56,282 nucleotides of DNA from NCBI GenBank assembly GCA_035494535.1, contig DATJGZ010000082.1:1-56282 (forward strand). The letters run 5' to 3'. A program made the position numbers and the translations under genes. Under the pieces are notes generated by a model. It saw only the letters and a program-made list of their open reading frames with translations, ran no database searches and was not told the DNA's origin. The stretch is from Patescibacteria group bacterium. GTDB taxonomy: Bacteria; Pseudomonadota; Alphaproteobacteria; Micavibrionales; Micavibrionaceae. Positions 1,029-21,178 of this stretch are shown piece after piece (the first letter of the stretch is position 1; each line of letters opens with the position of its first letter).

Positions 1029-1050
1029 ATATGATAATGTTCTCTACGAA
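1029..1050 (+). promoter_or_regulatory. Island motif copy (degenerate): ATATGATAATGTTCTCTACGAA
   Basis: TATGATAAT-N5-CTACG begins on the first base after the VOC stop codon, at the left island edge. Confidence 0.45.
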
Positions 1051-1275
1051 AATTCAAAATGATACTGAAGGATGGAAATAAACAAAGAACTGGGTCCAGA
1101 ACTTTTAAAAAAAATCGCCATTAGACCAGAGCGTCAAATTTAATTGACATAAATATTCGTTTCATTCACCATTTAATTAAGAGCTCTGCATCAGGAGCCA
1201 ACCCAATCCATCTGAAATTAACTAAGCAAATATTTCTGCCGACTCTCAACAGCAAGAGACCAGGAGGAAATACTG

Positions 1276-2091
1276 ATGACAATCAATGCAACGAACGGCA
1301 GCCACGAGCACCCTAGATATAGGGCGCCCACAAGGATTCCTACCGAGCAGTATAAAAAATGGACGAGCTTCATCGACAAAAAGGCTCGGGCTTTACGCAA
1401 AGAATTGAAATGTGCTCAGGGCCATCTTGAAGCCATTCACCATGCGTCTTTCAACTGGGGAATATTGCCTCAATACCAAAAGATGAATCTTCTTACAGAT
1501 CTATCAACCGATTTCTGTAGGATACTCGGCCTATCGGATATAAGGCTGTTTTCTAAAAACTCGTGGTCTAGTTACAAAGCAGCATCCCTCCATTTCAAAC
1601 AGGATTACGTTGCAAATTTTGAGATTGCAGAACAGGGCTGTTACGTCTCATCCGAAGGGGACAACTTTTCCCCTATGGTCATTTTATATATGGATAACGA
1701 AATCCTGAACGATCTCGGATTGTTTCCAGTCGTATCTACTTTGGGCCACGAAATTGGGCATTACTGTTTGGACGTATATTACAGGTTGCTTAATGCTCCG
1801 AAACGCAATGACCCCATGGATCACCAAGCCTCGTCATATTTTAAAGGCGTAACAACCGATGTCAAAACACTGACTGATTATCTCGATGTCATGAATTTTC
1901 TTATCGAGGACGAAGTCCATATTTTGCGGAAGGCTAATCTGCTCGAGGAGATATATGCAGCGATTGCAAGGGAAGACTATGAGCATCACGAAACATTGAC
2001 GCGAAAATATCTGCGACTGCCTGACGAGCAGGGCGCCGATTATGTTGGCAAGTCTCTTTCAAAAACCATTCAATCTTTGCTTTGCGATTAG
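1276..2091 (+). CDS. Orphan HExxH protein (putative Zn-metallopeptidase, ImmA/IrrE-like motif context)
   Basis: Strong SD AGGAGGAAATACTG precedes the ATG. VVSTLGHEIGHYCLD contains HEIGH. No signal peptide. Confidence 0.7.
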   Translation: MTINATNGSHEHPRYRAPTRIPTEQYKKWTSFIDKKARALRKELKCAQGHLEAIHHASFNWGILPQYQKMNLLTDLSTDFCRILGLSDIRLFSKNSWSSYKAASLHFKQDYVANFEIAEQGCYVSSEGDNFSPMVILYMDNEILNDLGLFPVVSTLGHEIGHYCLDVYYRLLNAPKRNDPMDHQASSYFKGVTTDVKTLTDYLDVMNFLIEDEVHILRKANLLEEIYAAIAREDYEHHETLTRKYLRLPDEQGADYVGKSLSKTIQSLLCD

Positions 2092-2178
2092 TGGGACAGT
2101 CACTCGTTAAGCCACAGCAAATTTAAATCATATCTAGAGGCGAAGATGAGCCGGTCAAAAACGCCCGATAAGGAAACC

Positions 2179-2201
2179 AATGTGGTAATGTTCTGAAATG
2201 G
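2179..2201 (+). promoter_or_regulatory. Island motif copy: AATGTGGTAATGTTCTGAAATGG
   Basis: TGTGGTAAT lies 37 nt upstream of the ATG at 2227. The downstream TTAYG half is not conserved. Confidence 0.45.
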
Positions 2202-2226
2202 AAATTAACTCAGACAGGAGATAAAA

Positions 2227-2427
2227 ATGAAAAATATCATATTTGCGTTTATTGCCTGCACGGTAATTGCCGGATGTGGAAAGATCGGAGCCGGTGGTGC
2301 GGTAAATCAACTGATGGGCAATTGGGCCGAAGTGAAACTGCCCGCCGATTGCAAAGTTAAGCAGATAGCTGGCGAGGAAGAAAGCGGAGTAATTATTCTG
2401 TGTGAAGATGGGAGAGTATTCCATTAA
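2227..2427 (+). CDS. Small lipoprotein (66 aa)
   Basis: SD GGAGA is 5 nt upstream. MKNIIFAFIACTVIAGCG has a lipobox (IAGC). Confidence 0.55.
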   Translation: MKNIIFAFIACTVIAGCGKIGAGGAVNQLMGNWAEVKLPADCKVKQIAGEEESGVIILCEDGRVFH

Positions 2428-2490
2428 GTCAGGAAACCTCCCAGACCAAAATCAGCGGTAGCAGGACTAAAAACCCCATTTGCCCGCGCC

Positions 2491-2514
2491 GATGTGATAA
2501 TGGAAATTATGAAT
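2491..2514 (+). promoter_or_regulatory. Island motif copy: GATGTGATAATGGAAATTATGAAT
   Basis: TGTGATAAT (2493-2501), then N5, then TTATG. Upstream of the GTG start at 2591. Confidence 0.55.
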
Positions 2515-2521
2515 ACCGATT

Positions 2522-2532
2522 GATTATCACAT
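2522..2532 (-). promoter_or_regulatory. Inverted half-copy of the island motif (GATTATCACAT, reverse complement of ATGTGATAATC)
   Basis: ATTATCACAT (2523-2532) is the exact 10-nt inverted repeat of ATGTGATAAT at 2492-2501. Confidence 0.5.
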
Positions 2533-2590
2533 TATCTGCCCGCAAAATCTTCAGTAGAATTGCTTTTCTTCAGAGGGGAGGGGCCACAAG

Positions 2591-3145
2591 GTGAGGGAAG
2601 TCTTCGAAATACGTCATACTATCGGCCTGAGCCAAGTCCTCGCCTATGAAGAGGCGGCTCAAACTCATCCCTTATTTTTAGAGCTACTGCAAAAACAGAG
2701 AGCAAAAAGGAAATCGTTAGCTGCTAAAAGCTATTTTAAGCTTCTTGTAAAGCTAACGGTTTTGGTCGCCATATTCCTTTATAGCGTGAGGGACAGCGCC
2801 ATTTTTATGTGGAACGTCGTGTTCTCAGCGGTCTTAATAATCGGTATTTCAATCTGGTCGTTAATTGACGCTCGGAAATTTATTCGTGGAGAAAAGGGGC
2901 CTGACACAAAGCACGAGATCGCAACGACAATAAACTCCATCGGAATTAAGAACCGCGTCACAATTTCCGGGAAGGAAATATCGGAAGAATATCCCTGGAC
3001 GAGCGTGGATCAGTTCTTTGACACGAAAAATTATATTTTTATAAATAGAGGAGAAAAAATTGATTATTTATCCAAAGGCGCGTTCAAGGATCCAGGCGAA
3101 GTTGAAGAGTTTCTGGAACAAGCGAAAAATTGGCGACGCGCTTAG
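2591..3145 (+). CDS. YcxB-like membrane protein
   Basis: GTG start follows SD GGGGAGGGG. Two adjacent TM helices (LVKLTVLVAIFLYSV, NVVFSAVLIIGISIWSL) precede a C-terminal domain (YPWTSVDQFFDTKNYIFINRGEKIDYLSKGAF). This is the YcxB architecture from memory. Confidence 0.55.
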   Translation: MREVFEIRHTIGLSQVLAYEEAAQTHPLFLELLQKQRAKRKSLAAKSYFKLLVKLTVLVAIFLYSVRDSAIFMWNVVFSAVLIIGISIWSLIDARKFIRGEKGPDTKHEIATTINSIGIKNRVTISGKEISEEYPWTSVDQFFDTKNYIFINRGEKIDYLSKGAFKDPGEVEEFLEQAKNWRRA

Positions 3146-3151
3146 AAGTGG

Positions 3152-3177
3152 GATGTGATAATATCTTTTACGCAAAA
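3152..3177 (+). promoter_or_regulatory. Island motif copy: GATGTGATAATATCTTTTACGCAAAA
   Basis: Starts 6 nt after the stop codon at 3143-3145. TGTGATAAT at 3154-3162, N5, TTACG. 37 nt before the GTG at 3199. Confidence 0.6.
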
Positions 3178-3198
3178 TAATGGGTCAGGGTTGCTTTA

Positions 3199-3495
3199 GT
3201 GAACAAAATAAGATTGAACGGATGGTTTCTCACATTTGCAATCGCCCTTGCTCTCCTTGGCTACCTTTATATCGATTATCAGGAATACAAGCAGAAATAT
3301 TCTGCGGCCTCTGGGCGCTACAAAATCACTGTAACTGTTGAAACGCCCGAAGGGCTAAAGACTGGCTCCGCCGTGCGCGAGATATATGCCAAAAGTGGCG
3401 GGCCAACAATGCTCGCAGAAGCATCAAGCGGTCATGTTGACGCTACCGGAGAGGCAGTGGTCGTCGATCTAGGCAAGCGCGGACCTCGTCCATAG
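3199..3495 (+). CDS. Small N-terminally anchored hypothetical protein (98 aa), possibly truncated
   Basis: GTG start, TM helix WFLTFAIALALLGYLYI. The ORF ends abruptly (GKRGPRP*), followed by 110 nt of non-coding sequence. Confidence 0.4.
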   Translation: MNKIRLNGWFLTFAIALALLGYLYIDYQEYKQKYSAASGRYKITVTVETPEGLKTGSAVREIYAKSGGPTMLAEASSGHVDATGEAVVVDLGKRGPRP

Positions 3496-3608
3496 TCTGG
3501 AATTTTCCCCTCCATGGATAGCCCGGCAGTTTAGGTTGCGTCCTTCTCGCCATTCGCAAGAGCTTGCACAAAAACAAGCCGTTTGCAAATTGGCCCCGCA
3601 AGCCTGAA

Positions 3609-4412
3609 CTAGGGATTGATTTGTTCGCTTGATTTTAAGTTCAAATTCCAGGGAATCTTTTGCCAAGGACTATCGGGCTGATCGGAGAGCTGCTTAAAAA
3701 CAGCTTTTTCCTTGTCATCATCCTTCACGGAACGGGAGTAATTCCAAAATCTTCTACCAATAAGATAATCGCGGCCGAGATCCTGCCACGATGAGAAAAC
3801 TGATTGTAGATGCATACCCACTGCGTATATGCGAGCCCAAGCTTCGTCTTCCGATAAATATCCAACCAGGTAACCCCACCGGCACAGGCTCACATATCGG
3901 CCAAAATCCCACGCCTGTATGCTTTTAGTACCAAGTTCTCTATGAGCGCTGACAATATCGAGACGGTTTTTTGTTTCACGGAGTTGGGCCACCGCTTTTG
4001 GTCCGGCTTGCGCCATCGCATCAGCTTCGTTTTTGGAATAGTTATCAAGAAACTTTCTGATTTCCGGGCCATCAATATTTGCTGCGTATAAATTAAACAG
4101 ACCGCGATTTCCTCCCTGTTCTATCCAGCTTAACGCAGCTAAAAAATCCTCGCGGTCTTGGATGCCCCACCAAGCTGTCATCGATTGACGCGCATCAATA
4201 ATATTTTGTTCTGTAATTATATCGCCGCCTAATAAGTCGTGTCGCTTATGGTTCATCTCCGTCAGGATGGCGGAGGTGGCTAATAACCAATCCTTCTGCC
4301 CCTGAGTTAAATGAATTGACGATGTGAATGGTTGCTTGCTCGATTGTGCATGGACAATTGTTGACGGCACCGAAATAAATGTAAGAAATAAAACGATGAT
4401 CAGAAAACGCAT
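3609..4412 (-). CDS. DUF1266-like protein with signal peptide
   Basis: AWDFGRYVSLCRWGYLVGYLSEDEAWARI matches the DUF1266 signature from memory. I chose the ATG at 4412 (MRFLIIVLFLTFISVPSTIVHAQS, signal-peptide-like) over the ORF-track start at 4463. Confidence 0.7.
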   Translation of the reverse strand: MRFLIIVLFLTFISVPSTIVHAQSSKQPFTSSIHLTQGQKDWLLATSAILTEMNHKRHDLLGGDIITEQNIIDARQSMTAWWGIQDREDFLAALSWIEQGGNRGLFNLYAANIDGPEIRKFLDNYSKNEADAMAQAGPKAVAQLRETKNRLDIVSAHRELGTKSIQAWDFGRYVSLCRWGYLVGYLSEDEAWARIYAVGMHLQSVFSSWQDLGRDYLIGRRFWNYSRSVKDDDKEKAVFKQLSDQPDSPWQKIPWNLNLKSSEQINP

Positions 4413-4730
4413 CAGATCCCGCCAAATAAGTAATGAGCGAACTATGGTACCATAAATCCACAAAGTGAAATCTTTTGAAAGATCAAAACCAGGGCCTGTC
4501 CTTATGAATAATTTTGTGAGCTTGCACTTGCATTAATTTGCGCCTTAAACCCCGGACCGAAATATACAGTCTGAAATACGGTTATATTAACTCTTGGGAG
4601 GCACCAAAATATTCGAACACTTGATCAGTAAAGTAAACGGCAGTTGCCCAAATGTAAGGCCATCGGTAGCATAAATCATCGGTCAAATTGTTATCTTTCA
4701 CATCGCGTGGCAAATAGAGAATAGATCTCC

Positions 4731-7700
4731 ATGAATTCATTTAGACTCATCATTGCACTCGTATTGTTGATGGCGATGTCTTCTGCCCGCCCATCGTATG
4801 CAAATGATATCAAAGCTCCTCTGGTCAGCGGCCAAGCGGCCACAGGCAATATAACCGGCACAGGGGTTGATACTTATACCTTCAAGACCAAAAAAGGCGG
4901 TTCTTTCGTTATCACCGTCAGTTCTAACGATCCTCACAATGACAAATTTACTCCACAAATGGAAATTAGTGGGCCTGAAAATATTTATGAAGTCGGCATT
5001 GTGCCGGAACCGCATAGCTTTGCCAGAAAACTCGAATCCAAAGTTCCGGAGGGAGACTGGACAGTAAAGGTCACTGGCGGCATGAGCGACGGTGATAGTG
5101 CTGTATCCGGGGCATATGAACTGACACTTCTCCAAGTACCAGGGGCAGTCGGTAAAAAGCTTAAGTTCGGCCAGCAGTACAAGAACGACATTCATGGCGG
5201 AGTACTCGATGTATATACATTCAGCGGAACGCCGGGTGTCACGGTTGAGATAAATACTGATATCACGGGCGATAAAAGCTTCTTCTCTTCGACGATGATT
5301 TTTGATCCCGCTGGTGTCACCATCAGTGACGAAGGCGCCGCGATTGGCAGTATAGGATCAAACCTTACAATGACCGCCTACGGTGATTATACCTTGATGA
5401 TTGGAAGCCAGGATTCAGGCAACGCTCAGGGAGGCTACACCTTATCGATAAACCGTCACGAAGAGGGGGCGAGCGAGCAAGAGGCCTCTACTCAATCTTC
5501 TGCGCCTGCATCGCCGCCATCACCACCCGCTGCGACGGCTCCGCCGACGCCCCCGATTCCCCCGGCCATGACGGTGGCGCAGGTATTCGATAACCCTGCC
5601 GCATATACCATTTACAGCAGGCACGTATTTCCTATGGCATTTAACCCCACAATGTATACCTCAGGAGGGTTACTTCTGACCCTTAATCCGGATGACCTTG
5701 GCAATACTCAAGACAGGAAAATGGTTAGGCAGGGCAATTTGCTGGCTTTGCTATATACCGGAGACTCAGAATTCAGGATGTCGAAGAGGAGGGCTGTAAA
5801 CGATTACTGGATTAAAGCCGCGGATAATGGGAATACGGATGCCCGAAACAGGCTTGGGATTCTTTATAGTATGATGAATGATGACCAAGCGCAGAATTAT
5901 CCGGCGGCAGACTGGTACAAGCGCGCTGTGGAACAGGGCAAGCTTGATAGGCCCGTCAAGATCTCAAATCTTTATCATGGCACCGAGCACCCGCAGGATG
6001 ATGCCGAGATCGTAAAGCTCGCAACAGGTTATGCGGAAAAAGGCGTGCCCGAGGCGCAATATGTACTGGGTGTAGCGTATGAAGCCGGGCAAGGGGTCCA
6101 GCAGGACTATGAGATGGCCGAAAACTGGTATCGAAAGGCAGCATCTCAAAATAATCGTAATGCCGAGTACGCGCTTGGGAAATTATACGTGAACGGGCAC
6201 GGGATGCCGCTTCCCTTACAAGCCTCAAATCCGCTACCACCGGATCCTTATTATGAAGGAGTAAGATGGTTCAAAAAGGCAGCTAATCATGGGCTTGCGC
6301 AGGCACAATTTCAGCATGCTCTTATGTTCCTTTATGGCGACGGCGAGAATATTGATTTCTCCATGGCCAGAGCATCCTTTCAGAGCGCTGCACAACAGGG
6401 TCTAGCCCCCGCCCAGTTCAATATTGCTCTCATGTGCGCGACAGGATTGGGCGGAGATACTGACTATGCATGTGCGGCGAAATGGTACGAGCGTGCAGCA
6501 GCTCAGGGATTGATTCTGGCACAGAACAATCTCGGAGAATTATTCGAACACGGCGCAGGGGTAACTCAGGACTACGAGATAGCCGCCAAATGGTACCGCG
6601 CCGCCGCCGAAACAGGTTATCCGGTCGCTCAATACAATCTGGGGCGTCTGTACCGCGATGGCCGTGGTGTTTCGAAGGATACATCGCAAGCAATGTCACT
6701 CTTCGCCAAGTCGGCCGCAGAGGGCAATGTAGAGGCACTGGCTGAGCTCGATGAACTGAAGGCAGCGGCTGGAAATCCTCAAGCCCGTGGTGAGGAAATC
6801 ACCGTCCTGCGAGCGGCGTCAGCAAACGGTGATAACGATGCTTTATTAAAGCTTGTCACACTTTATCGCTCAGAGGGAATCATGGCGGATGATTACGACG
6901 ATGTGCTGGCGTTGTACCGCAAGGCAGCCGAGCAGGTAAATCCGATAGCTTTTGTCGCCCTCGGGGATCTCTTCGCAAAGAAGGAACCGCCCGACTATGC
7001 AGAGGCGTATTTCTGGTACCGGCTTGCGATTGTTTCTATCGATAAATGGCGTATTTTTTCCGATGAAAAAGAGGATTTAACGAAATATGCGGAGGACATC
7101 GCCGCGAGAATATCCGGAAATCTGATGCCCGAGCAGGTTGCGGTCGCACAATGGCGCATCGCCGATCGTAGTCCACCCGCACCGGATAAAGAGCAACTGG
7201 CAGGCGCCGAACTTTACATCAAGGGCAACGTGGCTGAACAGAAAGGAGACTACTACAGGGCCATGGAATATTATATGGAGGCGGACAGCGATGATGTGGC
7301 TCTCGCGGCAGAAGATCTTGGCCGGTTCTTCGAACACGGTCTGGGCGTCAATCGCAATATGGAGCGGGCCATCTATTATTTTAAAAGAGCTGTCAGGAAT
7401 GGCCGGATCGGGACAGCGACATGGATCGGCGATATATATCTCTACGGCATCGGCGTTCCGGTGGATATCAACGAGGCTGCAAAGTGGTATCAGATGGATG
7501 CCGACCGAGGCTGTGTTCGCGCCATCCAAACTCTTGGCTGGATATATCTGTTTGGTGGGAAGGGTGAAGAAGCAAAAGCCATCGAATTGTACGAGAAAAT
7601 GGCCGCGCGCGATTCCAGATTCAATGCCGATGCATATGATCCACTCGGTATGATCTATCTCTATGGAATAGGGGTGTCGAAGGATCCGAAAAAGGCGCTC

Positions 7701-9574: not shown

Positions 9575-9585
9575 GTAAACCGTCT

Positions 9586-10245
9586 ATGAAGCCAATCAAC
9601 CTATATGTCCGAGAATTAATTTATGCCAGTTGTATAGGTCTCTGCTTAACCATCTCAGCCAGGGCCGGGGAAAATCGGGATGCAGAGACAGATTACACGC
9701 TTGGCATGAAATACTACATTGGGACCGATGAGATTGATCAAGATGTGAAACAGGCTGTTGAATGGTTCCGCAAAGCCGCAGAGCTTGGGCTAGCGAAGGG
9801 CCAGTATCGACTGGGTCAAGCTTATGATAGCGGCCAAGGTGTGCGGCAGGATTACCCCACGGCGATGCGGTGGTATCTGCTGGCTGCGGTGCAAGATGAC
9901 CGCGATGCGGAGTCAGCATTGGGAGATATTTACGCTGCTGGGCACGGCGTCAAGATTAACAACGATCAGGCGGCGAAATGGTACTACAAGGCCGCAGAGC
10001 AGGGCGTTGCTCATGCGCAGTCAGAATTGGGCAAGCTCTATTTTTCAGGCACAGGGGTTAAACAGGACTTTGTCGAGGCTTATTTTTGGCTCGGTGTCGC
10101 GTCGAAAGAGATAGACGATGCCGTTGATAAACGCGACGAAGCGGGAGAACGATTGACGCCCGCTCAATTAAGCGGAGTTCGGCACCGCATTGAAACGTGG
10201 CGACCGGAAATTGCGCAAGAAGTCGAAAGAAGCGGAAAACTGTAA
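9586..10245 (+). CDS. Secreted Sel1-repeat protein (219 aa)
   Basis: Signal-peptide-like N-terminus, four Sel1 units (GQYRLGQAYDSGQGVRQDYPTAMRWYLLAA etc.), and a C-terminal EAYFW...LTPAQL...W cap. Confidence 0.9.
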   Translation: MKPINLYVRELIYASCIGLCLTISARAGENRDAETDYTLGMKYYIGTDEIDQDVKQAVEWFRKAAELGLAKGQYRLGQAYDSGQGVRQDYPTAMRWYLLAAVQDDRDAESALGDIYAAGHGVKINNDQAAKWYYKAAEQGVAHAQSELGKLYFSGTGVKQDFVEAYFWLGVASKEIDDAVDKRDEAGERLTPAQLSGVRHRIETWRPEIAQEVERSGKL

Positions 10246-10271
10246 GAATTTTTGAGAGACAGAGTTAGTGA

Positions 10272-10832: not shown

Positions 10833-10842
10833 TTACTGTTCC

Positions 10843-10868
10843 AGTGTGACAAAAGAAATTACGACAAT
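10843..10868 (+). promoter_or_regulatory. Island motif copy: AGTGTGACAAAAGAAATTACGACAAT
   Basis: TGTGACAAA-N5-TTACGAC, pointing at the ATG at 10952. Confidence 0.5.
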
Positions 10869-10871
10869 CAA

Positions 10872-10897
10872 ACATTATTCGAATGAATTATTGCACC
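10872..10897 (-). promoter_or_regulatory. Island motif copy on the minus strand (degenerate): GGTGCAATAATTCATTCGAATAATGT
   Basis: TGCAATAAT (an extended -10 form) points at the minus-strand gene that starts at 10832. It sits back-to-back with the plus-strand copy at 10843. Confidence 0.4.
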
Positions 10898-10951
10898 GTC
10901 TGGGGCTAAAATCATGTCCTGATTTGCATTTGTGAAGAGGGCAGGGGACCG

Positions 10952-11566
10952 ATGAAGCCGCCATGTTTTGACGTATCAAAGAACGGAAAAAAAATCGTCC
11001 GTGCCGGCGTGCGTGGCGGGGTTGTCTCTTTAATACTTACGTGGGTTGGGAACGTATCCGAGGCGTCTAAACCTTCTGCTTCAAAAAAAGGTCCTGTAGC
11101 CGGTTTAACTTTACGGGTTGGAGGAATAGACCAAAAGCCGGACGGCGATAAAAGAGTTGAATGGCTTGATAATCCTAGGCTCTGCGTCGGTGATGAAATT
11201 CACATCCGCATTACCGATGAGGAGCCCGACAAACCGCTGCGATCTGAACGGAAGACCCCTCACACGATAAGCAAAGAAGGCGTTCAGCTCGCTGAATGCT
11301 CTTTTTGTCTACGAATGCAGCGATCAGATCCTACATTCCGTCCTGCTATACGAACGCCCGATCATTTCATCTGTACGCGCTGTCTTATCCTAGCCGAGCG
11401 AATGCTAGACGAAGATTCCGATCAGCTATTTCACTTACACCGGACGACAGGAAAAAAATGTCTCCTGTGTTCCAGCTATAAGACCAAAGAGAGTGTTTCA
11501 GCTTGGAAGGCGCATGTATGCAGGGCTTGCATTGATAAAACAATGAAGCACGTAATCCCTAACTAA
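10952..11566 (+). CDS. Hypothetical protein with two ClpX-type C4 zinc-ribbon-like motifs
   Basis: CSFCLRMQ-x18-HFICTRCLILAERML and CLLCSSYK-x11-HVCRACIDKTMK both fit CxxC-x(n)-CxxC, as in the ClpX N-terminal zinc binding domain (CSFCG...IC..C). Confidence 0.6.
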   Translation: MKPPCFDVSKNGKKIVRAGVRGGVVSLILTWVGNVSEASKPSASKKGPVAGLTLRVGGIDQKPDGDKRVEWLDNPRLCVGDEIHIRITDEEPDKPLRSERKTPHTISKEGVQLAECSFCLRMQRSDPTFRPAIRTPDHFICTRCLILAERMLDEDSDQLFHLHRTTGKKCLLCSSYKTKESVSAWKAHVCRACIDKTMKHVIPN

Positions 11567-11574
11567 TGCAGTCT

Positions 11575-11600
11575 GATGTGATAATGTTTTTTACGGCATT
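11575..11600 (+). promoter_or_regulatory. Island motif copy: GATGTGATAATGTTTTTTACGGCATT
   Basis: Starts 8 nt after the stop at 11564-11566. TGTGATAAT at 11577-11585, N5, TTACG. Confidence 0.6.
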
Positions 11601-11742
11601 TTTATTCTCAATCGTCTCATTACACGTCAGAGCAAGGTGTTAAAGGCTTATCTCCGTGTAATTCCCTCAAAACAAATACGGCAAATATTCCATAAATTAT
11701 CAAGGGATATTTAATGATGATGTATCAAATTTTCATTATGGG

Positions 11743-14397
11743 GTGAACTTACGCGGGGACCTGATGAGGGATCGTAAAAATAACAACACATTTTTCATTC
11801 TATTCGTCGTCCTTCTGGGCGTCGGAGGTGCAGGATTCTTTCGCGCCTCGGCTAATCCGATGGCACTAAAGTTTTTTGCTGCGCTTGGAGATGCTGATGC
11901 GCAAAGACACCTTGGAGAAATAAATCTTTACGGCAATCCTAAGGATTATGCGGAAGCTCTGAGGTTGTTTCAACTCGCTGCAAAAAAAGGAGATCTTTGG
12001 GCCGAGAGCCGACTGGGAACAATGTATGCAGAAGGCTGGGGTGTGCAACAGGATTTTGAACAGGCCAAAAAATTATGGACCGACGGCGCTTCAAAAGGAT
12101 TTGCGGGAGCTGAGTATAACCTCGGGGTTCTTTATCAAAATGGCGATGGCGTAGAGCAAGACTCTAAACAAGCCAAATTTTGGTACCAGAAGGCTGCAGC
12201 ACAAGGGCACCCGTTGGCGCAAAAGGAACTTTCGCAACTTGCCCAGGTAGATTCCAATCCAGACCCTGACATCGGAAAGATGTCTACTGCGCCGCGGAAA
12301 AATATCAATATCAATATTCAGATCGATCCTGAAGTTAGTAGGGCAAATCACGAATATGATCGGATGGTTGCCAGTCTTTCGCCTGCCGAACAGCAAGAGC
12401 TGAAAGCTTTGGACGGCGAATTGGTCAAGGCGATCGAGCCGAAAATCGAAATTAAGAGTCAGGAAGCGGAATTCTCTGCTTGTGCAAAATCAGACCCTAC
12501 GTTTGAAGCCAGGTACAAGCAGATGATGCAGACGTTCAGACTTCGCAAGATGGATGATCTGACCTCTTTACACAGCTCCTTCATGGAGCGCATCAGCAAA
12601 ATCGATTACATCGATAAAGAAGCCTTGGGCAAGCACTTGTCATTTCAGGAAACCCTCTCAACCGAAATGGCAGGCGGACTGGCAATGGCTGCTGCTCAAA
12701 TGGATAAGGACGGAAAACTATGCGCGAAACTCAAACATGATTTGGAGACCGAATATGCCACACCGTATGTGGTTGCGGATCCGAGAGCAATGTTCGACAG
12801 CCAGCCGATGCGTGACGAAATAAGCGGTCGGATCAAGGAATGCTCATTTGGACTTCGTGAGGATACCAAAGATGGTCATGTCATCAGCACGACAATCCAC
12901 TTTGAAGGACCAGAAGTATCCTTCAGCGCAAAAGTAGCTAATCCTGACATGAGCTTTGTGCCGGTTAGTGATCTATGGATCAACTTTGGGGATTTCGATA
13001 CGAGGAGAGAGGCAAATTTTGGCCAAAGAAACCAGGCCATGCTTATGGGAACAATGCCTCCCACAACTATCATTCCGATCCTTAGCGCCGTTCGTGACGG
13101 TAATGTTGTATATTCTGTCTCGACAGCAGCAGCCGGGAAACCTTACCTCTTTGCTCCGGCGGCGGCACAGCCGCAACTGGCAAATACTGTCGCTAGCTGC
13201 GTCGCTACCCTTCAGCCGGATTATCTTGAGCCTCTTCGGAAGGCGGGGTTAAGTCCGATGCCTGACCCGCGCGATGTCGAGGCGATGTCCGCTCCTCCAA
13301 AAGACTTCATTTATAATGTTTCTGCCCTAAATCAGGGCGAAAATCCCGTAGGCTGCGTGTGGCAGACCACGGCGCATACAGAATCAGACGGCGCTCAAGC
13401 CGCCGCAGTGGTTATCGTCTACGGTGCTGCTGGCCCAATGACAAATATGACAGAGTTCTGGCTTATGGGCGCCGATCCCGCGACAGGGGGGCGTTTAATA
13501 TTTAACGACTTTCAAGTGACCGCCAAGACTTCTGATGGAAAAGTGATTGAGCCCGCCAAGATAAAGAGGGCGAAAATCACAATGGGACAGCTTGCAAAAA
13601 TTGCCCTGACGTCGGCCGATGCTGGTGGAATTGTTAATGCGATAGCTGAAAATGGCATGGAAGTTTCCGGCCGCACCCAAGAAAACAAGACTTTCAACTA
13701 TACACTGCCGGCGCCTGAGCCAGAGTCACTTAAGGCCTATAACGGATGCCTTGACCGGCTTCAGAAATACATAAGCGAACACAAGAACGCTCCTCAGGCA
13801 AAATCCGTAGCCCCGGCTCCCGACATTGCCCCAAACGCCGGACCCGATGAAAAATATCTCGCCTACGTCGATCAGGCGATGGCTGATCCATCTACCGCTA
13901 ACTGGATTATGATCCGTGAATTATATCCAGACACCTCCTTCTACAAAAAAATCGGCGGCACTTATCTTAGTCATGCCAGCCAGGAATTCATGGCTAAAAT
14001 GGGAGACAATCCTACGCCCGAGCAGATTGCTGCGTATAAAACATTCATGAGAGACCATTTCGCCAGCATCGGCGCCCACTCCAGAGCGATAGGTTTATAC
14101 GATAAAACGAAGGCGGGTTACATCAACGTGGAGCAGGAAAAACAAATCTATCACAGTCTCTTTACAAGTATCTTGAGTTCAGGCGACAGCCTGAGTCCCG
14201 CAACCGCTATGAAAGCCATTAGCGTTGAAGAAGTTTCATACGTTCTTAGCCACAGCCCTGGGGGACCGCCGGCACAACCGACTTTCAAACAGGATAATGG
14301 CAATTACTATGCAATAGCGGAGATCAGGAATCCTAAAACAGGTGACATGATGAAGACTTATTTTTTAGTCGACGGCCGGGCGCTCAAAGGGCCCTAG
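11743..14397 (+). CDS. Membrane-anchored Sel1-repeat protein with a roughly 700-aa orphan C-terminal region
   Basis: GTG at 11743 (alternative ATG at 11764). TM helix FFILFVVLLGVGGAGFF. Three to four Sel1 units, after which I recognise no family. Confidence 0.85.
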   Translation: MNLRGDLMRDRKNNNTFFILFVVLLGVGGAGFFRASANPMALKFFAALGDADAQRHLGEINLYGNPKDYAEALRLFQLAAKKGDLWAESRLGTMYAEGWGVQQDFEQAKKLWTDGASKGFAGAEYNLGVLYQNGDGVEQDSKQAKFWYQKAAAQGHPLAQKELSQLAQVDSNPDPDIGKMSTAPRKNININIQIDPEVSRANHEYDRMVASLSPAEQQELKALDGELVKAIEPKIEIKSQEAEFSACAKSDPTFEARYKQMMQTFRLRKMDDLTSLHSSFMERISKIDYIDKEALGKHLSFQETLSTEMAGGLAMAAAQMDKDGKLCAKLKHDLETEYATPYVVADPRAMFDSQPMRDEISGRIKECSFGLREDTKDGHVISTTIHFEGPEVSFSAKVANPDMSFVPVSDLWINFGDFDTRREANFGQRNQAMLMGTMPPTTIIPILSAVRDGNVVYSVSTAAAGKPYLFAPAAAQPQLANTVASCVATLQPDYLEPLRKAGLSPMPDPRDVEAMSAPPKDFIYNVSALNQGENPVGCVWQTTAHTESDGAQAAAVVIVYGAAGPMTNMTEFWLMGADPATGGRLIFNDFQVTAKTSDGKVIEPAKIKRAKITMGQLAKIALTSADAGGIVNAIAENGMEVSGRTQENKTFNYTLPAPEPESLKAYNGCLDRLQKYISEHKNAPQAKSVAPAPDIAPNAGPDEKYLAYVDQAMADPSTANWIMIRELYPDTSFYKKIGGTYLSHASQEFMAKMGDNPTPEQIAAYKTFMRDHFASIGAHSRAIGLYDKTKAGYINVEQEKQIYHSLFTSILSSGDSLSPATAMKAISVEEVSYVLSHSPGGPPAQPTFKQDNGNYYAIAEIRNPKTGDMMKTYFLVDGRALKGP

Positions 14398-14398
14398 A

Positions 14399-14914
14399 AT
14401 GGAGGCGCCTATGGAGAATAAATCAACATGCCATCAAATATGTTTACTAATTTTTGTGGGCATGCTTACAGCATTTTGGAATTCGTCATCATTTGCAGGT
14501 GAGGGGCCTGACTTCATAGGAGATAAAGATCAGGCGGTAATTACAAATATGAAATTCGCTCGCGATCATATCACTGGCGCACATCTTTTAGATGGATCCA
14601 ATGTCCGTCCCGAGACAGCAGAAGAATTAAAAAATCCCGTTATCCCGATTGAAGAAGGCAAACGGGTTGTTAACCGCGGTATTTTGACAGCATTAGCAAA
14701 GTACTGTGGTTTAGACGGACAAAATGACAGCTATCTCCCATTCATGAGCCACGAGCGCCAAAGCAAGCTGTGGTCTGACAAGCAACTCGCCTATATAGGC
14801 TTGTTGCACGGAATAACACAGGCAGAGTTTTATGATCTTTTTAAAAAGAAAGGAAACTGTTCCGATTTGCAAAAGCAACGAGTCCAAACTTTTCTCGATA
14901 ATATTGATAAATAA
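14399..14914 (+). CDS. Hypothetical secreted or anchored protein (171 aa)
   Basis: Starts 1 nt after the upstream stop. Hydrophobic N-terminus ICLLIFVGMLTAFWNSSSFA. Confidence 0.6.
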   Translation: MEAPMENKSTCHQICLLIFVGMLTAFWNSSSFAGEGPDFIGDKDQAVITNMKFARDHITGAHLLDGSNVRPETAEELKNPVIPIEEGKRVVNRGILTALAKYCGLDGQNDSYLPFMSHERQSKLWSDKQLAYIGLLHGITQAEFYDLFKKKGNCSDLQKQRVQTFLDNIDK

Positions 14915-14962
14915 GAAGTTGCAGCTGATACCTGAGAAAACTCAACTTCTGGATTTCGACGG

Positions 14963-14984
14963 GATGACGTTTTTTACGACAAAT
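14963..14984 (+). promoter_or_regulatory. Island motif copy (degenerate, -10 half missing): GATGACGTTTTTTACGACAAAT
   Basis: Keeps GATG and GTTTTTTACGAC. A GATAATAT half-site lies 59 nt upstream (14897-14904), across a hairpin. Confidence 0.35.
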
Positions 14985-14995
14985 GGGGGCTGGAC

Positions 14996-15865
14996 ATGAA
15001 ATTGATCAGATTGACGATACTAATTGCGGCGCTGCTCTTACCGGCGATCATCTCCCCAGTTGAAGCATCCCCTCTTGTGCCTAAAGTCGGCGATATCTAC
15101 GAAATTACCCGAACCAAGGATTCTGCCCAGAAGGGCACCGGATCCAACAGCAGCTCACACGATAAGGATACCATCATCGAGCGCGTAGTGGGACTACGCC
15201 CGGACGGCCTGGAACTGGAATACGACCTGCCGGAAACAACTAAGGCAGCCGAGAGAGCCAGCCAGTGGCAATTTCCCGCTAGGATTTTTAAACCAACTAA
15301 TGGACCGGCGGAGTTGCTCAACCGTCCTGAGCTCGAGGCAAGGGTGGCCGCGTGGCTCAAATCTGCCGGGGTTTCACGTGCCCTCTGCGGACATTGGTAT
15401 TTTACATGGAATGCGTTTCAAGTCGAATGCGATCCTCAATCAGTAATAAAAACGGTCAAATCATTCGAGCTGGGACCCGGTAATCTACATGAAGGGGATT
15501 CCTATCAAGACCCCGACGCAAGCAGGCCAGGAAAATTATCTAAAAAGGATTCCAAGCCGGACAAGGTGATTTTCTCCACCGAGATGCCAGTTGATCCCGA
15601 CGCCGTTCGTCGCGCTCGGGCGGAATCTGACGTTGTTGTAGGGGAAATAATGCGTGAGCCGGTCACTCTTGAGGCTGCGCTCAGTAAACACGCCAAGGAA
15701 ACTGTTTCAGGTACGATCTCCATCGACGTCGAAACAGGTTCTACTGGCAATGTGCGTCGACGGACAAAGGTATCAAAGGTGAACATTCAAGGTCCGGGCA
15801 CCCAGTCAGAGACAGACGCAACGACAGAAACTTTGGAACGCCGACTAATTTCACCAAGGCAATAA
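14996..15865 (+). CDS. Hypothetical secreted protein (289 aa)
   Basis: Signal peptide MKLIRLTILIAALLLPAIISPVEA. No family recognised. Confidence 0.7.
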   Translation: MKLIRLTILIAALLLPAIISPVEASPLVPKVGDIYEITRTKDSAQKGTGSNSSSHDKDTIIERVVGLRPDGLELEYDLPETTKAAERASQWQFPARIFKPTNGPAELLNRPELEARVAAWLKSAGVSRALCGHWYFTWNAFQVECDPQSVIKTVKSFELGPGNLHEGDSYQDPDASRPGKLSKKDSKPDKVIFSTEMPVDPDAVRRARAESDVVVGEIMREPVTLEAALSKHAKETVSGTISIDVETGSTGNVRRRTKVSKVNIQGPGTQSETDATTETLERRLISPRQ

Positions 15866-15894
15866 CAATCACCCTGTAATTGTAAGTCGAAAAT

Positions 15895-18800
15895 ATGTCA
15901 GATAATTCCGGGATTCAGAAAGGCGCAAAACCGAAAAAGCAATTTTCCAAGATACTTATTTTAAGTCTTTCATTTCTAATGCTGGTATTAGCCAGTCTTG
16001 GCCTGGTTAATCGATATTCTTCCAAGCCGCTGCCTTTTCCACTGCTAAAGGTTTTAGCACATCTTGGAGTTGCGGACGCCCAGAGGGCGATAGGCGAAAT
16101 GTACCTGTATGGATTTGGGGTCGATAAGGCTTTTAATGTCTACCCGATAAACAGCGTGAGCATAAACTATCCGGAAGCCTTCAAATGGTTTCAGTTAGCA
16201 ACAAGGAATGGAAACCTCCGCGGCGAGAGCAGGCTCGCGCTAATGTATGCTGGTGGCAAAGGTATCCCGGCAAACGTGGCCGAAGCGGTACGCCTTTGGC
16301 ATGACGGTGCTGATAAGGGCTATTCCCTGGCGCAATACAATCTCGGCGTCATGTACGCGAAGGGCGAGGGCGTTCCTCAAGATTATAACGAGGCAAGGAA
16401 ATGGTATACGAAGGCTGCTGAACAGAATCAGCCCCTTGCCGAAATGCAGCTTGGCCAGATTTATGATAATGGCTGGGGTACGAAGCGGGATTACAGCGAG
16501 GCCATGAAATGGTATCGCAAGGCCGCTCAACAGGGTGTGCCGGGTGCCCAATATCTTCTGGGGTATATGTACGACCATGCTAACGGCGTGGAACAGGATA
16601 ACGCCCAAGCAAGAGATTGGTATCAGAAAGCCGCACAAAATGGCGAGGAAGCCGCCCAGTTCAATCTTGGCATTCTTTACGAGACCGGAAGAGGCGGTGC
16701 CAAGGACTATGAAGAGGCCGCTAAATTATATAGTGCGGCCGCCGCGCAAGGCGTGGCCGACGCACAATTCAACCTTGGCGTATTTTATCAACTGGGCCGC
16801 GGCGTCAAGAAGGATTACGCTGTGGCCATGGACTGGTTTCAAAGAGCGGCAGCTCAGGGGCTCTGGCAGGCCAAATACAACATCGGCATGTTGTATTACA
16901 CCGGTAGTGGCGTAAAAACCGATTACCAAGAGGCTGCAAAGTGGTTCCGCGAAGCGGCTGGCGACGAATGGGCATCTGATGCGCAATACGCCCTTGGGTT
17001 GCTTTATATTAAAGGGCGCGGTGTTCCCCAAGATTACACGGCTGCTGCGCACTTCCTCCAACAGGCCGTCGATCATGGTGACAAACAGGCACAAAAATTA
17101 CTGCCTGAAGTTAATGAAATCATCAAAATAACCCCTAAAGATGACGCTGAAGCAGAGGTGGGCGGCCTTGATAAGGCAATCGAACATGGCAAAGCCGGTG
17201 AATATAAACTGATCGTCTATGAGAATTTGGTATTCAACAAAATAAACGACCACATGTCTGCCGGCGGACTCAATCATTCTGCGTTCGACGTTGACTGCGA
17301 TTATTTCAATTTTATTGAGAACCAAAAGAAAATCACCCGAATATGGAGCGATCCTGACACATTTCCCGAGACACTGTTAAAGCAGGAAGCGACATACAAT
17401 TTGACTCTGGCGCTCCTGCCCGATTTTCCCTATCCACATTTGTGCCATGTAAAAGATTCCCCGGAAGCGACTCGGGCCGTGGAAAAAATCCTTTCACGTC
17501 TCGGCATATCCCGCGGCGAATATGATGCGAGACGGCTAGCCGTCGAGAATTCATCGATTTTTACGGCATCCTTTTTCGGCCACATTGATGCAATTAGAAA
17601 ACACATTGCTGATCTAAATCAGGTCGACGAATTTCATCTTACTGCTCTTAAATACGCTTATATGGGCCAGCAGTTGGATGCCTTCAGGTTCCTTCTCGAT
17701 CATGGTGCCAATACCGGTAGCAACGCATCGTTGTTGCATTCGAAACCTGCTCTGGTCGGTTTCCAGGACAATGAAAACCTGTCGACCTGGCTTCTGCTTC
17801 CGATCCACTACCCGAGCAGCCGCCCATTTTTTGATCTTCTTCTGCAGTCCAAGCCTAAGCTGGATAAGCAAGGTATGAGTTTTGTTGTCAGGTATGCCGA
17901 ACCGGATCTTCTTGTTAAGCTTTTGGACTTAGGAGCCCCACTGCCTCGAATGCTGGACACAGACTTTCGCAGACCCCAAGCATTTGAAATCATAAAAACG
18001 CTTGTGAGTAGGGGGGCGTCAATTGCAAAGGAAGAAAATCCGAGCGACTTTATTGGCGGTCCTACTCAGTCTTTAGCCTGTGCAGCAATCATGGCCGGGC
18101 GTAACGAGATTCTAAAGTATCTGCTTGAACATGGGGCATCGCCAAATGGCTCGGCAAACCACATTCCCTTGTTTTGTGCGACGGAGGGCATCGACCTCAT
18201 CCAAAAGGGTCGAAACTATGAGATGGGTCCCCCCGTTCCTATAAGTTTAGATACGTTGGCCATTCTTCTAGATGCCGGCGCCGACCCAACACTTAAGGAC
18301 AGGAAGGGACATCATCTCCTTGAAAGCCTCTTGAACCCGAATGAACGGGCAAAAGTAGAGAAATTCCTGGCGGATCGGCATATAGATCTAATGGCGTTGG
18401 CTGCGGAGAAGGAAAAGAAAATAGCCGCCACAATTCGCTCGATGCCGATCGAAGACAAAGCGCGACAATGCACGTTGTTTAAATATTCCTCATATTGGTA
18501 TCTAGACTACGTCATTCCGGAACAATATCCGGAGGATCCCAAAAGGTTCTTCTCACGCAATTTTGACGAAGCGATCAGGCTCTGCCGTGAGGCAAAAGAA
18601 GCAGGAAATGCCGACGCTATAAAGTATCTTCCAACACTCCTCCAAAGAAAGGCCGAAATTATTATAGATACGCGCGATACAGCACACTATCCTGAAGCAA
18701 TATCTTTATATCGCGAAGCAGCTGAAACGGGATATCGCCCTGCAATTAGAGGACTTGCGGGATGCTATATGAGTGATCGATGCGGAATGAAAGAGGATTT

Positions 18801-18945
18801 TAAAGAAGCATATTTCTGGCAATTTTTGGATAATGAAAACCAAACCTATTATTTCGCCGCGACTAAACTGACGCCGGCTGACATAGATGTGGAGCAGAAA
18901 CGGGTGGCCGTATGGAAAAACTCGCACCCGAAAGTTCACGACTGA
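15895..18945 (+). CDS. Membrane-anchored Sel1-repeat / ankyrin-repeat fusion protein (1016 aa)
   Basis: TM helix ILILSLSFLMLVLASLGLV. About nine consecutive Sel1 units. Central ankyrin-like units (LTALKYAYMGQQLDAFRFLLDHGANT, ACAAIMAGRNEILKYLLEHGASPN, LAILLDAGADPTLKDRKGHHLL). C-terminal Sel1 unit with an EAYFW cap. Confidence 0.9.
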   Translation: MSDNSGIQKGAKPKKQFSKILILSLSFLMLVLASLGLVNRYSSKPLPFPLLKVLAHLGVADAQRAIGEMYLYGFGVDKAFNVYPINSVSINYPEAFKWFQLATRNGNLRGESRLALMYAGGKGIPANVAEAVRLWHDGADKGYSLAQYNLGVMYAKGEGVPQDYNEARKWYTKAAEQNQPLAEMQLGQIYDNGWGTKRDYSEAMKWYRKAAQQGVPGAQYLLGYMYDHANGVEQDNAQARDWYQKAAQNGEEAAQFNLGILYETGRGGAKDYEEAAKLYSAAAAQGVADAQFNLGVFYQLGRGVKKDYAVAMDWFQRAAAQGLWQAKYNIGMLYYTGSGVKTDYQEAAKWFREAAGDEWASDAQYALGLLYIKGRGVPQDYTAAAHFLQQAVDHGDKQAQKLLPEVNEIIKITPKDDAEAEVGGLDKAIEHGKAGEYKLIVYENLVFNKINDHMSAGGLNHSAFDVDCDYFNFIENQKKITRIWSDPDTFPETLLKQEATYNLTLALLPDFPYPHLCHVKDSPEATRAVEKILSRLGISRGEYDARRLAVENSSIFTASFFGHIDAIRKHIADLNQVDEFHLTALKYAYMGQQLDAFRFLLDHGANTGSNASLLHSKPALVGFQDNENLSTWLLLPIHYPSSRPFFDLLLQSKPKLDKQGMSFVVRYAEPDLLVKLLDLGAPLPRMLDTDFRRPQAFEIIKTLVSRGASIAKEENPSDFIGGPTQSLACAAIMAGRNEILKYLLEHGASPNGSANHIPLFCATEGIDLIQKGRNYEMGPPVPISLDTLAILLDAGADPTLKDRKGHHLLESLLNPNERAKVEKFLADRHIDLMALAAEKEKKIAATIRSMPIEDKARQCTLFKYSSYWYLDYVIPEQYPEDPKRFFSRNFDEAIRLCREAKEAGNADAIKYLPTLLQRKAEIIIDTRDTAHYPEAISLYREAAETGYRPAIRGLAGCYMSDRCGMKEDFKEAYFWQFLDNENQTYYFAATKLTPADIDVEQKRVAVWKNSHPKVHD

Positions 18946-18953
18946 ATGTGCCC

Positions 18954-18979
18954 AATGTGATAATATCTTTTATGAATAT
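18954..18979 (+). promoter_or_regulatory. Island motif copy: AATGTGATAATATCTTTTATGAATAT
   Basis: Starts 8 nt after the stop at 18943-18945. TGTGATAAT at 18956-18964. The next start codon is at 18980. Confidence 0.6.
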
Positions 18980-19489
18980 ATGAAAGATTCCGTAGCCGAA
19001 CGTTTTCGACTAGCAGTTTATTTACTCATCGCCTGCGGTGTCATTTGGCTTGGTAAAGTTATCTTTCACACATTTGTATCACCGGCAACGCCTCGCACGA
19101 TCGGGGAAAAAACTGAGCAATGCGATTTTGCTCTTCAATACACTGCCTTTGAGGCATTTAGTCTGTACATCAATAGGGAAGGGGCGTACACGTCGAAGGA
19201 TTTTAAAGAAGCGTTCGGATGGTGCGAACAAGCTGCCAACGCAGGAAGTCCCTTGGCGCAGGCTACATTGGCGGAGCTCTACGATATGAGTTCGCAGACC
19301 GGCGGAGTACCAAAGGACGATGCAGAAGCATATTTTTGGCTGTCATTGGCGCAAAAATCCAATCCTGCAGTGATCCCAAAAGTAACTAATTTGACTATAG
19401 GATATCTTCGAAAGCAGCTTACAAAGGATCAGATCGCAATTGTTGACCGTCGAGTACAAAATTGGAAGCCAGTCAGAAACGCGATGTGA
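18980..19489 (+). CDS. Membrane-anchored Sel1-repeat protein (169 aa)
   Basis: I chose the ATG at 18980 (MKDSVAERFRLAVYLLIACGVIWLGK) because the ORF-track start at 18887 overlaps the upstream gene. Contains a Sel1 unit and an EAYFW...LTKDQI...W cap. Confidence 0.75.
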   Translation: MKDSVAERFRLAVYLLIACGVIWLGKVIFHTFVSPATPRTIGEKTEQCDFALQYTAFEAFSLYINREGAYTSKDFKEAFGWCEQAANAGSPLAQATLAELYDMSSQTGGVPKDDAEAYFWLSLAQKSNPAVIPKVTNLTIGYLRKQLTKDQIAIVDRRVQNWKPVRNAM

Positions 19490-19508
19490 TAATAACTATT
19501 ACGACTAT
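19483..19508 (+). promoter_or_regulatory. Island motif copy: GATGTGATAATAACTATTACGACTAT
   Basis: Overlaps the TGA stop (19487-19489) of the upstream gene. TGTGATAAT at 19485-19493. The next ATG is at 19511. Confidence 0.6.
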
Positions 19509-19510
19509 AG

Positions 19511-19795
19511 ATGGAAACCAAAAATCAAAAGCAGACTAAAGAGCCTTTGCCTTTATCGACGCAGATTGTACTCGGTCTGGTACTTGGCGGATTAGCTTTC
19601 TTTACGTACCAGATGCTCCGTCTACGGCCTGTTCAGGTTCGAAGCGATGATCCTCCATGTCTCTACTGGGTCGGCAAGGTTGGAGCCAACTGCAAACAAA
19701 CTAGAACCGGTCAATGTCAGCACTGGCAGGATGAGCTTAATAAATGCCTAGAGAGCGTGAAAATCCGCGAAGAGAAACGTAACGACACTCGTTGA
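19511..19795 (+). CDS. Small membrane protein with a Cys-containing C-terminal tail (94 aa)
   Basis: TM helix IVLGLVLGGLAFFTY. Four Cys in the tail. No SD. Confidence 0.5.
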   Translation: METKNQKQTKEPLPLSTQIVLGLVLGGLAFFTYQMLRLRPVQVRSDDPPCLYWVGKVGANCKQTRTGQCQHWQDELNKCLESVKIREEKRNDTR

Positions 19796-19833
19796 TAGGC
19801 ATTGCTAACGGGGCAAACATAGCTTGGAATGCC

Positions 19834-19857
19834 GATGGATAATGTATCTTCTGAATA
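19834..19857 (+). promoter_or_regulatory. Island motif copy (degenerate): GATGGATAATGTATCTTCTGAATA
   Basis: Last copy, at the right island edge. A TTTTACGATATGAAT half-site follows at 19880-19894. Confidence 0.4.
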
Positions 19858-19907
19858 CTTCATCCGAATACCTCACTCATTTTACGATATGAATTAATTC
19901 CTATTCG

Positions 19908-21117: not shown

Positions 21118-21178
21118 AAGCAAAAAATATAGAAAATCGATTAATGCAAAGTTAATAAAGTAGAGAAAGCTGTAACTA

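Follow-up and report, generated by a model that had tools for sequence, protein, structure and literature searches.

We analysed a stretch of 56,282 nucleotides (nt; hereafter the window), which is contig DATJGZ010000082.1 of a Micavibrionaceae genome (Alphaproteobacteria; GenBank assembly GCA_035494535.1). Its left part holds a low-GC island in which a short element, ATGTGATAAT-N5-TTAYG, recurs at gene boundaries. The island has a GC (guanine plus cytosine) content of 0.42-0.53 and lies within DNA of 0.55-0.62. Its cargo comprises Sel1, TPR and ankyrin repeat proteins, DUF1266, DUF4034, YcxB-like and HExxH proteins, and small proteins that are secreted or sit in the membrane. To the right of it the DNA is ordinary chromosome and encodes glycosyltransferases, epimerases, the nuo operon and two tRNAs. 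An earlier note on this DNA took the element for a promoter of the extended -10 type, bearing a site for its own regulator or sigma factor. Judging from the sequence of the copies and from where their relatives lie in other genomes, we instead put the probability at about 0.8 that they are Xer-type recombination sites, i.e. mimics of the chromosomal site dif.

The element has five exact matches in the window (2492, 3153, 11576, 18955 and 19484), each on the + strand and inside the island, against an expectation of 0.00 in 100 dinucleotide-preserving shuffles. Five weaker, decayed copies accompany them, at 1029, 2179, 10843, 14963 (with an internal deletion) and 19834 (with a 1-nt deletion). 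We refer to these ten sites as A to J; all lie on the + strand, in direct orientation, and 14 of the 16 island genes are co-oriented with them. The earlier note had listed eleven copies, of which these ten are present; the other, at 10897-10872 on the minus strand, has no TTAYG arm and was not counted. Outside the island, the window contains only two near-misses of the motif (24621 and 26015), which agrees with the note's statement that no convincing copy lies elsewhere in this DNA. Each copy has the layout of a 28-bp Xer site: (c)GATGTGATAA as the XerC-type arm of 11 bp, a 6-bp centre that varies, and TTAYGnnAAnT as the XerD-type arm, again of 11 bp. The gap between ATAA and TTAYG is exactly 6 nt not only in the five intact copies but also in A, E and J; site B fits poorly. 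This gap is one T plus the 5-nt spacer between TAAT and TTAYG that had been described as fixed, and the fixed spacing holds. The sequence GTGATAA-N6-TTAYGAC is near-palindromic, the arms being partial inverted repeats (…ATAA / TTAT…).

We give the sites in 28-bp frames, as left arm/centre/right arm. Site A (1027-1054; AAATATGATAA/TGTTCT/CTACGAAAATT) is degenerate but dif-like, overlaps the TAA stop of gene 549-1028 and marks the left edge of the island, where GC drops sharply from 0.68 to 0.38 at about 1030. Site B (2178-2205; CAATGTGGTAA/TGTTCT/GAAATGGAAAT) is also degenerate and has the centre of A. Sites C (2490-2517; CGATGTGATAA/TGGAAA/TTATGAATACC) and D (3151-3178; GGATGTGATAA/TATCTT/TTACGCAAAAT) look intact; C is an exact pattern match, and D starts 5 nt past the stop of gene 2591-3145. 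Site E (10842-10869; CAGTGTGACAA/AAGAAA/TTACGACAATC) has a decayed left arm and a right arm of the type found in the canonical soil dif described below, TTACGACAAT (compare contig L158). Site F (11574-11601; TGATGTGATAA/TGTTTT/TTACGGCATTT), intact-looking, lies 7 nt past the stop of gene 10952-11566, and its junction recurs in an independent soil contig (L001/L162). Site G (14963-14985; GATGACG..TTTTT/TTACGACAAAT) is dead, with an internal deletion in the left arm that makes it look like F minus TGATAATG. Site H (18953-18980; CAATGTGATAA/TATCTT/TTATGAATATA) has the centre of D and shares its last base with the start codon of the gene at 18980. The left arm of site I (19482-19509; CGATGTGATAA/TAACTA/TTACGACTATA) contains the TGA stop (19487-19489) of this Sel1 gene (18980-19489), and the next gene runs from 19511, such that genes begin 0-2 nt past both H and I. 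Finally, site J (19832-19859; CCGATG-GATAA/TGTATC/TTCTGAATACT), the rightmost, has the canonical centre TGTATC, a 1-nt deletion in its left arm and an altered right arm. The suggestion that the first and last copies coincide with the island edges is therefore exact on the left, at site A, but not on the right, where the compositional edge (about 20250-20300) lies some 400 nt past site J. The copies do tend to follow stop codons closely, as had been noticed: this is the case of A, D, F and H, and a stop lies within I. Sites D, F and H begin 5-7 nt downstream of a stop in the 28-bp frames, which is 6-8 nt from the motif starts used in the earlier note.

Some sites have further features nearby. 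An inverted copy of the left arm, ATTATCACATT, lies 5 nt beyond the XerD arm of site C (2523-2533, - strand), and a weaker inverted ATAA-type arm (10875-10897) is found at the same distance beyond site E. Within site H, a three-codon open reading frame (ORF), ATG AAT ATA TGA (18970-18983), overlaps the start codon of the Sel1 gene 18980-19489. Were transcription to begin about 7 nt past GATAAT, one could speculate that this mini-ORF is leaderless and coupled to the real start.

The sites delimit nine modules between 1055 and 19831, of 0.3-7.7 kb, with a GC of 0.41-0.53 and often with one gene. Module 1 encodes a HExxH protein (1276-2091), module 2 a lipoprotein-like protein of 66 amino acids (aa; 2227-2427) and module 3 a YcxB-like protein (2591-3145). 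Module 4 comprises 3199-3495, a DUF1266 protein encoded on the - strand, a 1155-aa Sel1 protein, a TPR/DUF4034 protein, a 219-aa Sel1 protein and, again on the - strand, a protein of 186 aa. Module 5 has a 204-aa protein with a zinc-finger-like region, module 6 a Sel1 protein of 884 aa and a 171-aa protein, and module 7 a 289-aa protein and a Sel1/ankyrin protein of 1016 aa. Modules 8 and 9 encode, respectively, a Sel1 protein of 169 aa and a 94-aa protein. No integrase or recombinase family of Pfam matched any of the 16 island ORFs, nor any of the 21 right-flank ORFs scanned, and the ORFs scanned in the window include no xer gene. Phage, replication and XafT-like genes were not detected in the modules either.

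The element is not restricted to this island. In a scan of a genome collection with the loose pattern GATGTGATAAT-N5-TTAYG, the matches listed were mostly chance single matches, but they also included a longer version, GATGTGATAATGTATCTTAYG, in metagenome-assembled genomes (MAGs) of Bryobacterales, Bryobacteraceae, Terriglobia and Acidobacteriaceae, and GATGTGATAATGTATATTATGGAAAT in several alphaproteobacterial MAGs. A specific scan of metagenome contigs gave 117 loci, about 80 of them on contigs with a GC of 0.5-0.6, mainly from soil and peat metagenomes and in many unrelated contexts. The core GATGTGATAAT-GTATC-TTAYG occurs in 59 unrelated, non-redundant contexts of high GC, mainly from soil and peat, including acidobacterial and alphaproteobacterial MAGs, usually as one copy per contig. 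We call this the canonical site. It has the same 11+6+11 structure, cGATGTGATAA/TGTATC/TTATGACAACT, and its form in alphaproteobacterial MAGs is GATGTGATAA/TGTATA/TTATGGAAAT. The element had been called island-specific, which is true inside this window but not beyond it, as it is widespread in other genomes and contigs. A specificity for Sel1-type islands is not supported.

To characterize the surroundings of the canonical site, the 59 non-redundant contexts were oriented such that the GATGTGATAA arm leads. On each strand, we then counted GGGNAGGG, the FtsK-orienting motif of E. coli type (FtsK-orienting polar sequence, KOPS). The motif is found 28 times on the top strand and six times on the bottom strand to the left of the site, and once on the top and 18 times on the bottom strand to its right (Fisher p = 3.3e-8). 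With GGGCAGGG alone, the top:bottom counts change from 11:0 in the left flank to 1:9 in the right one. No strand switch across the site is seen with the control motif GGGNTGGG (8:9 on the left, 6:6 on the right). The mean GC skew changes sign at the same place, and convergent gene pairs surround the site in 10 of the 23 scorable cases (25% expected). The KOPS pattern is likewise present at the alphaproteobacterial MAG loci. Because it has the anatomy of dif and is located where KOPS converge, the canonical version is a chromosomal dif.

The canonical site also resembles known dif sequences. The dif of E. coli is GGTGCGCATAA/TGTATA/TTATGTTAAAT. The general layout of dif is two 11-bp arms around a 6-bp central region (PMC9226527). 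In hand alignments, the canonical site is identical at 20 of 28 positions to the dif predicted in Thermodesulfovibrio, ATGTCTGATAATGTATATTATGTTAAAT, and at 19 of 28 to that of Solibacter usitatus, ACTTCCGATAACGAATATTATGTCAACT (Kono et al. 2011, PMC3025954, Additional file 2). The same study predicted TTGTCGCATAATGTATATTATGGATAGA in Rhodospirillum rubrum and …CATAAGGTATATTATGGAATAT in Rhodopseudomonas and Nitrobacter (Kono et al. 2011, PMC3025954). The sites of the alphaproteobacterial MAGs carry this published alphaproteobacterial XerD arm, TTATGGAA(A/T)AT, and their centre also matches, e.g. that of R. rubrum. The NuoF of the window falls in a 90% identity cluster together with proteins of alphaproteobacterial MAGs, so the group of the host is one where this type of dif occurs. 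Overall, the chromosomal dif predicted for Acidobacteria, Nitrospirae and Alphaproteobacteria in that study share with our sites the 11+6+11 layout, the inner arm GATAA, TGTATA-like centres and a XerD arm TTATG(G/T)nAAnT. They differ in the outer XerC arm, which is GATGTG here and TTCC, GTCT or TCGC there. The window copies differ further by their non-canonical centres and XerD arms, and by their number, ten in 19 kb.

The DNA next to the canonical dif has regularities of its own. In 22 of 56 non-redundant contexts (e.g. L030, L080, L134, L151, L180, L196, L202), GGGCAGGG occurs on the top strand, within TTCAGGGCAGGGGGC, at +40 to +42 from the start of the site. This box is the E. coli KOPS consensus, lies 12-14 nt past the XerD arm and has the polarity of the left replichore, so that it points away from dif. 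The DNA adjoining the XerD arm matters for FtsK activation (PMC2673442), and a possible role of the box is to position FtsK, or to halt it, at XerD. Between +22 and +44, an inverted repeat of the outer XerD arm often comes after it (e.g. ACAAC-TATAG-GTTGT, GGAAT-ATA-TTCC), with halves that co-vary. This was seen in 11 of the 56 contexts, against 3.2 upon permutation of the 5-mers and tails (maximum of 9 in 1000 permutations). We considered that a hairpin and the G-rich box could belong to a small RNA or a 5' leader. This was rejected, as the box is a KOPS-type motif and the site is dif-like; Rfam gave no match at the sites, neither in the window nor in 14 related loci. We also discarded small ORFs, or peptides on the reverse strand, past the canonical site, since their apparent protein-like conservation comes with no consistent start codon or open frame. 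A BLAST search of a plasmid collection with the canonical 60-mer as query gave no match; the window's own sites were not searched there.

Modules similar to those of the island recur beside the canonical dif of other contigs. In many of them, a second dif-like site in direct orientation lies 0.2-5 kb from dif, mainly on the XerC side. For example, five independent contigs (L038, L129 (/L137), L135, L192 and L196) have a near-identical site, GATGTGATAATAAACATTCCGGAAA, to the left of the canonical dif, yet the 440-5263 nt in between are unrelated (blastn) and encode different small proteins, among them ones with ORF6N-like and WGR-like features by eye. The GATGTGATAATAAACATTCCGGAAA site could have been conserved as part of the chromosome, or a family of small mobile modules could use it in common for attachment. 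Another case involves a homologue of a gene of the window. In L222/L144, a VOC/PhnB-like gene forms a single-gene module between GATGTGATAT/TGTTCT/TTATGAAAATA and the canonical dif (2100-2970 in L222). This gene is 81% identical in DNA to positions 537-1024 of the window, i.e. to gene 549-1028 on the left flank of the island, and the site next to it in L222 agrees with site A in its centre, TGTTCT, and almost fully in its right arm. The left-flank gene may thus itself have arrived as a module, although the window contains no dif-like site upstream of it.

Other contigs show further arrangements. By eye, fragments of relaxase-like and DNA-ligase-like genes lie upstream of the VOC module of L222/L144. 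Contig L158 has three dif-like sites within 520 nt (1910, 1455 and 1389, - strand). The low-GC contig L238 has two sites with the canonical centre in inverted orientation (4753 - and 5534 +), 780 nt apart, as is typical of Acinetobacter modules. In a Rhodospirillales MAG (L087, 566-1485), a Sel1-repeat gene with a signal peptide adjoins the XerD side of a dif-like site, in a short low-GC stretch, which echoes the Sel1 cargo of our island. To the right of the dif of L030 there is an RHS/YD-repeat-like protein (905 aa, by eye), followed by a Sel1-like protein on the dif-facing strand.

The observations that we rely upon are thus the anatomy of the copies, a core identical to that of sites found where KOPS converge, the recurrence of modules beside such dif and the lack of a recombinase in the island. 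From these, the island is best read as an array of nine modules, of the kind described as integrative mobile elements exploiting Xer recombination (IMEX) or as 'dif modules', with no recombinase of its own. We think that the array arose, somewhat more probably than by other routes, through serial Xer-mediated insertion. Small circular elements, each with a dif mimic and without a recombinase, would have been inserted one after the other by the XerC/XerD of the host at dif or at a dif-like site. Each junction would then be a hybrid, in which the conserved XerC arm is retained and the incoming element supplies the centre and a XerD arm that is not canonical. Hybrid junctions of this sort would account for the near-constant left arm, the variable 6-nt centres and the degenerate right arms. 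Strands would be exchanged within the 6-bp centre. Differing centres and poor XerD arms should block most recombination between junctions and so stabilize the array. Sites A and B, and sites D and H, which share centres, could still delete the DNA between them. That XerC and XerD are the enzymes, that the modules came as circles and that this host can still use any of the sites are inferences.

Two known systems come close to this picture. In Vibrio cholerae, an integrated IMEX has a left junction with the resident XerC arm and the deviant XerD arm of the incoming attP, and a new dif forms to the right of each newcomer (PMC9226527). [quoted passage not shown] Site J, with its canonical centre TGTATC, is in this rightmost position of 'current dif'. 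Unlike these arrays, our units are tiny and lack detectable phage, replication or XafT-like genes, and their array is not at a detectable terminus; they sit in a soil alphaproteobacterium and carry Sel1, TPR and ankyrin proteins and small secreted or membrane proteins. The second system is that of the dif (or pdif) modules of Acinetobacter (PMC12907356, PMC6449649), which also have Xer sites clustered away from the main dif and small cargo without recombinases. The 'dif module island' of strain M10 has 10 sites and 9 modules in 36 kb, about 1.1 Mb from the main dif (PMC12907356); ours has 10 sites and 9 modules in 18.8 kb. The sites alternate between C/D and D/C in Acinetobacter (PMC12907356), whereas all ten are direct here. 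Moreover, the former are linked to plasmids and resistance genes, while the island is chromosomal and has no resistance genes. Arrays of integron cassettes share with the island compact, mostly single-gene and co-oriented cassettes, with a short recombination site at junctions that abut the stop. They differ in having intI, attI and attC structure (R''/L''/L'/R'), all absent here, where dif mimics are presumably handled by the housekeeping XerC/XerD. In sum, the island is like an IMEX array in how it works and like a 'dif module island' in how it looks, and it is no integron. The earlier note's secondary suggestion, a duplicated cassette junction, was essentially right.

Several results limit this reading or do not fit it. 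The five weaker copies are not significant by themselves: allowing up to three mismatches gives 8 matches for 5.7 expected. A matrix derived from 24 dif sites of the literature, most of them proteobacterial, could not separate the window sites from the background, although this matrix is too weak a tool; under this weak test, site D scores highest among the five exact-match sites. IMEX integrate at a functional dif, and no terminus is detectable at the island by KOPS, GC skew or gene orientation. There are five KOPS on the top and one on the bottom strand in the right flank (20-56 kb), and the four in the island are all on the top strand. GC skew is positive throughout the window, and the + strand carries 20 of the 33 genes in the right flank, as well as the nuo operon and both tRNA genes. 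Because none of these features switches at the island, site J is not a functioning chromosomal dif now, and the main dif of the host was not seen. Since the island is not at a polarity switch and site J is mutated, the array is either a secondary dif-like locus, for which the Acinetobacter island is a precedent, or a relic. There is no direct sign of movement. We saw no structural variants of the array, whose gene order is colinear in contigs from other soil samples. One module protein, of 184 aa, is an orphan, and the relatives of the 289-aa module protein are in ordinary GC-rich chromosomal contexts without such sites. A search for an 'empty site' through homologues of the left-flank VOC gene, which belongs to a very widespread family, found no synteny. 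The XerC-type arm is also the better conserved one here, unlike in cer, psi and pdif sites. The same pair of sites around unrelated cargo in other lineages is indirect support for the movement of modules.

A variant of the reading as dif mimics deserves attention, namely that the sites double as promoters of the modules. The left arm would provide the -10 box and its TGA or TAA the stop of the preceding gene, making the modules integron-like cassettes that run on housekeeping enzymes. Such a double use would fit the tight packing of the modules, the stop inside site I, the starts just past H and I, the co-orientation of genes and sites in the window, and the extended -10 present in every intact copy. 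However, the orientation of genes is not conserved in the dif-side modules of other contigs, and leading-strand bias also predicts the co-orientation seen here. We therefore regard this double role as rather unlikely. A broader version of the idea is equally tentative. In soil Alphaproteobacteria and Acidobacteria, there might be an integrase-free, integron-like capture of genes, in which one-gene circles with a dif mimic are stacked one way by XerC/XerD at dif or at secondary sites, with the XerC arm also serving as stop and extended -10. Under this doubtful scenario, the array in the window would be a large instance and the two-site modules beside soil dif the common small form.

The proposal of the earlier note was simpler: the box would be a promoter of extended -10 type (TGnGATAAT), possibly served by a regulator or sigma factor specific to Sel1-type islands, and each island gene would be driven separately. 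Indeed, TGTGATAAT resembles TGnTATAAT and is a fair extended -10, found in the intact copies, and every copy points to the downstream gene. Modules 8 and 9 begin so close to their sites that there is no space for another private promoter. In addition, in three viral contigs from the rumen (L121, L186 and L201), the same 21-mer lies 15 nt past TTGACA, as in a real promoter. Yet, a -35-like hexamer accompanies only the copy at 18954, and promoter-like matches in the island are below chance. The note had itself remarked that conservation exceeds what RNA polymerase needs, and this is correct: the GATG, the fixed 6-nt gap and TTAYG are all unneeded by the polymerase and are explained by Xer arms. 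Elsewhere, in the 59 outside contexts, the same element is usually a single copy where KOPS converge, about half of the copies point at a convergent gene from its 3' side, and the genes in modules beside dif run opposite to the sites. Together with the dif-like 11-6-11 anatomy, this leaves the promoter and its regulator unsupported, and we consider them improbable. The inner arm of dif is AT-rich, and this is what gives the sites their resemblance to a promoter, TGnGATAAT. A CRP-like half-site, TGTGA, was rejected by eye, as the second half-site TCACA is absent.

The sRNA-Xcc1 family of Rfam is associated with integron cassettes, and a match to it above the gathering score (55.4 bits) was found in L202 (419-505), about 7 kb from the dif of this contig. 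Beyond this match and the placement of the repeats at gene boundaries, little favours integron attC sites or the ends of miniature inverted-repeat transposable elements or insertion sequences, which we rejected as very improbable given that their defining features are absent: intI is absent, as is any long imperfect palindrome ending in RYYYAAC/GTTRRRY, conservation spans just about 28 nt, neither flank is conserved, contrary to the end of an insertion sequence, and Rfam finds nothing at the sites.

Immediately right of the island, gene 20281-21210 (-) has a lipase-like GFSMG motif and no Pfam match. It is head to head with 21179-23008 (+), which has LMF1 (lipase maturation factor) and DCC1-like domains.

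Our analysis yields a dif consensus, GATGTGATAA-N6-TTAYG, that can be used in soil lineages about which little is known, and a test for it based on KOPS. It also indicates that sites of recombination can look like strong promoters, which is relevant to the motif-based annotation of regulons in MAGs. If our reading of the island is right, Xer-driven capture of modules extends beyond the filamentous phages of Vibrio and the resistance plasmids of Acinetobacter, and would be a general route for soil bacteria to gather small foreign DNA using enzymes that nearly every bacterium has.

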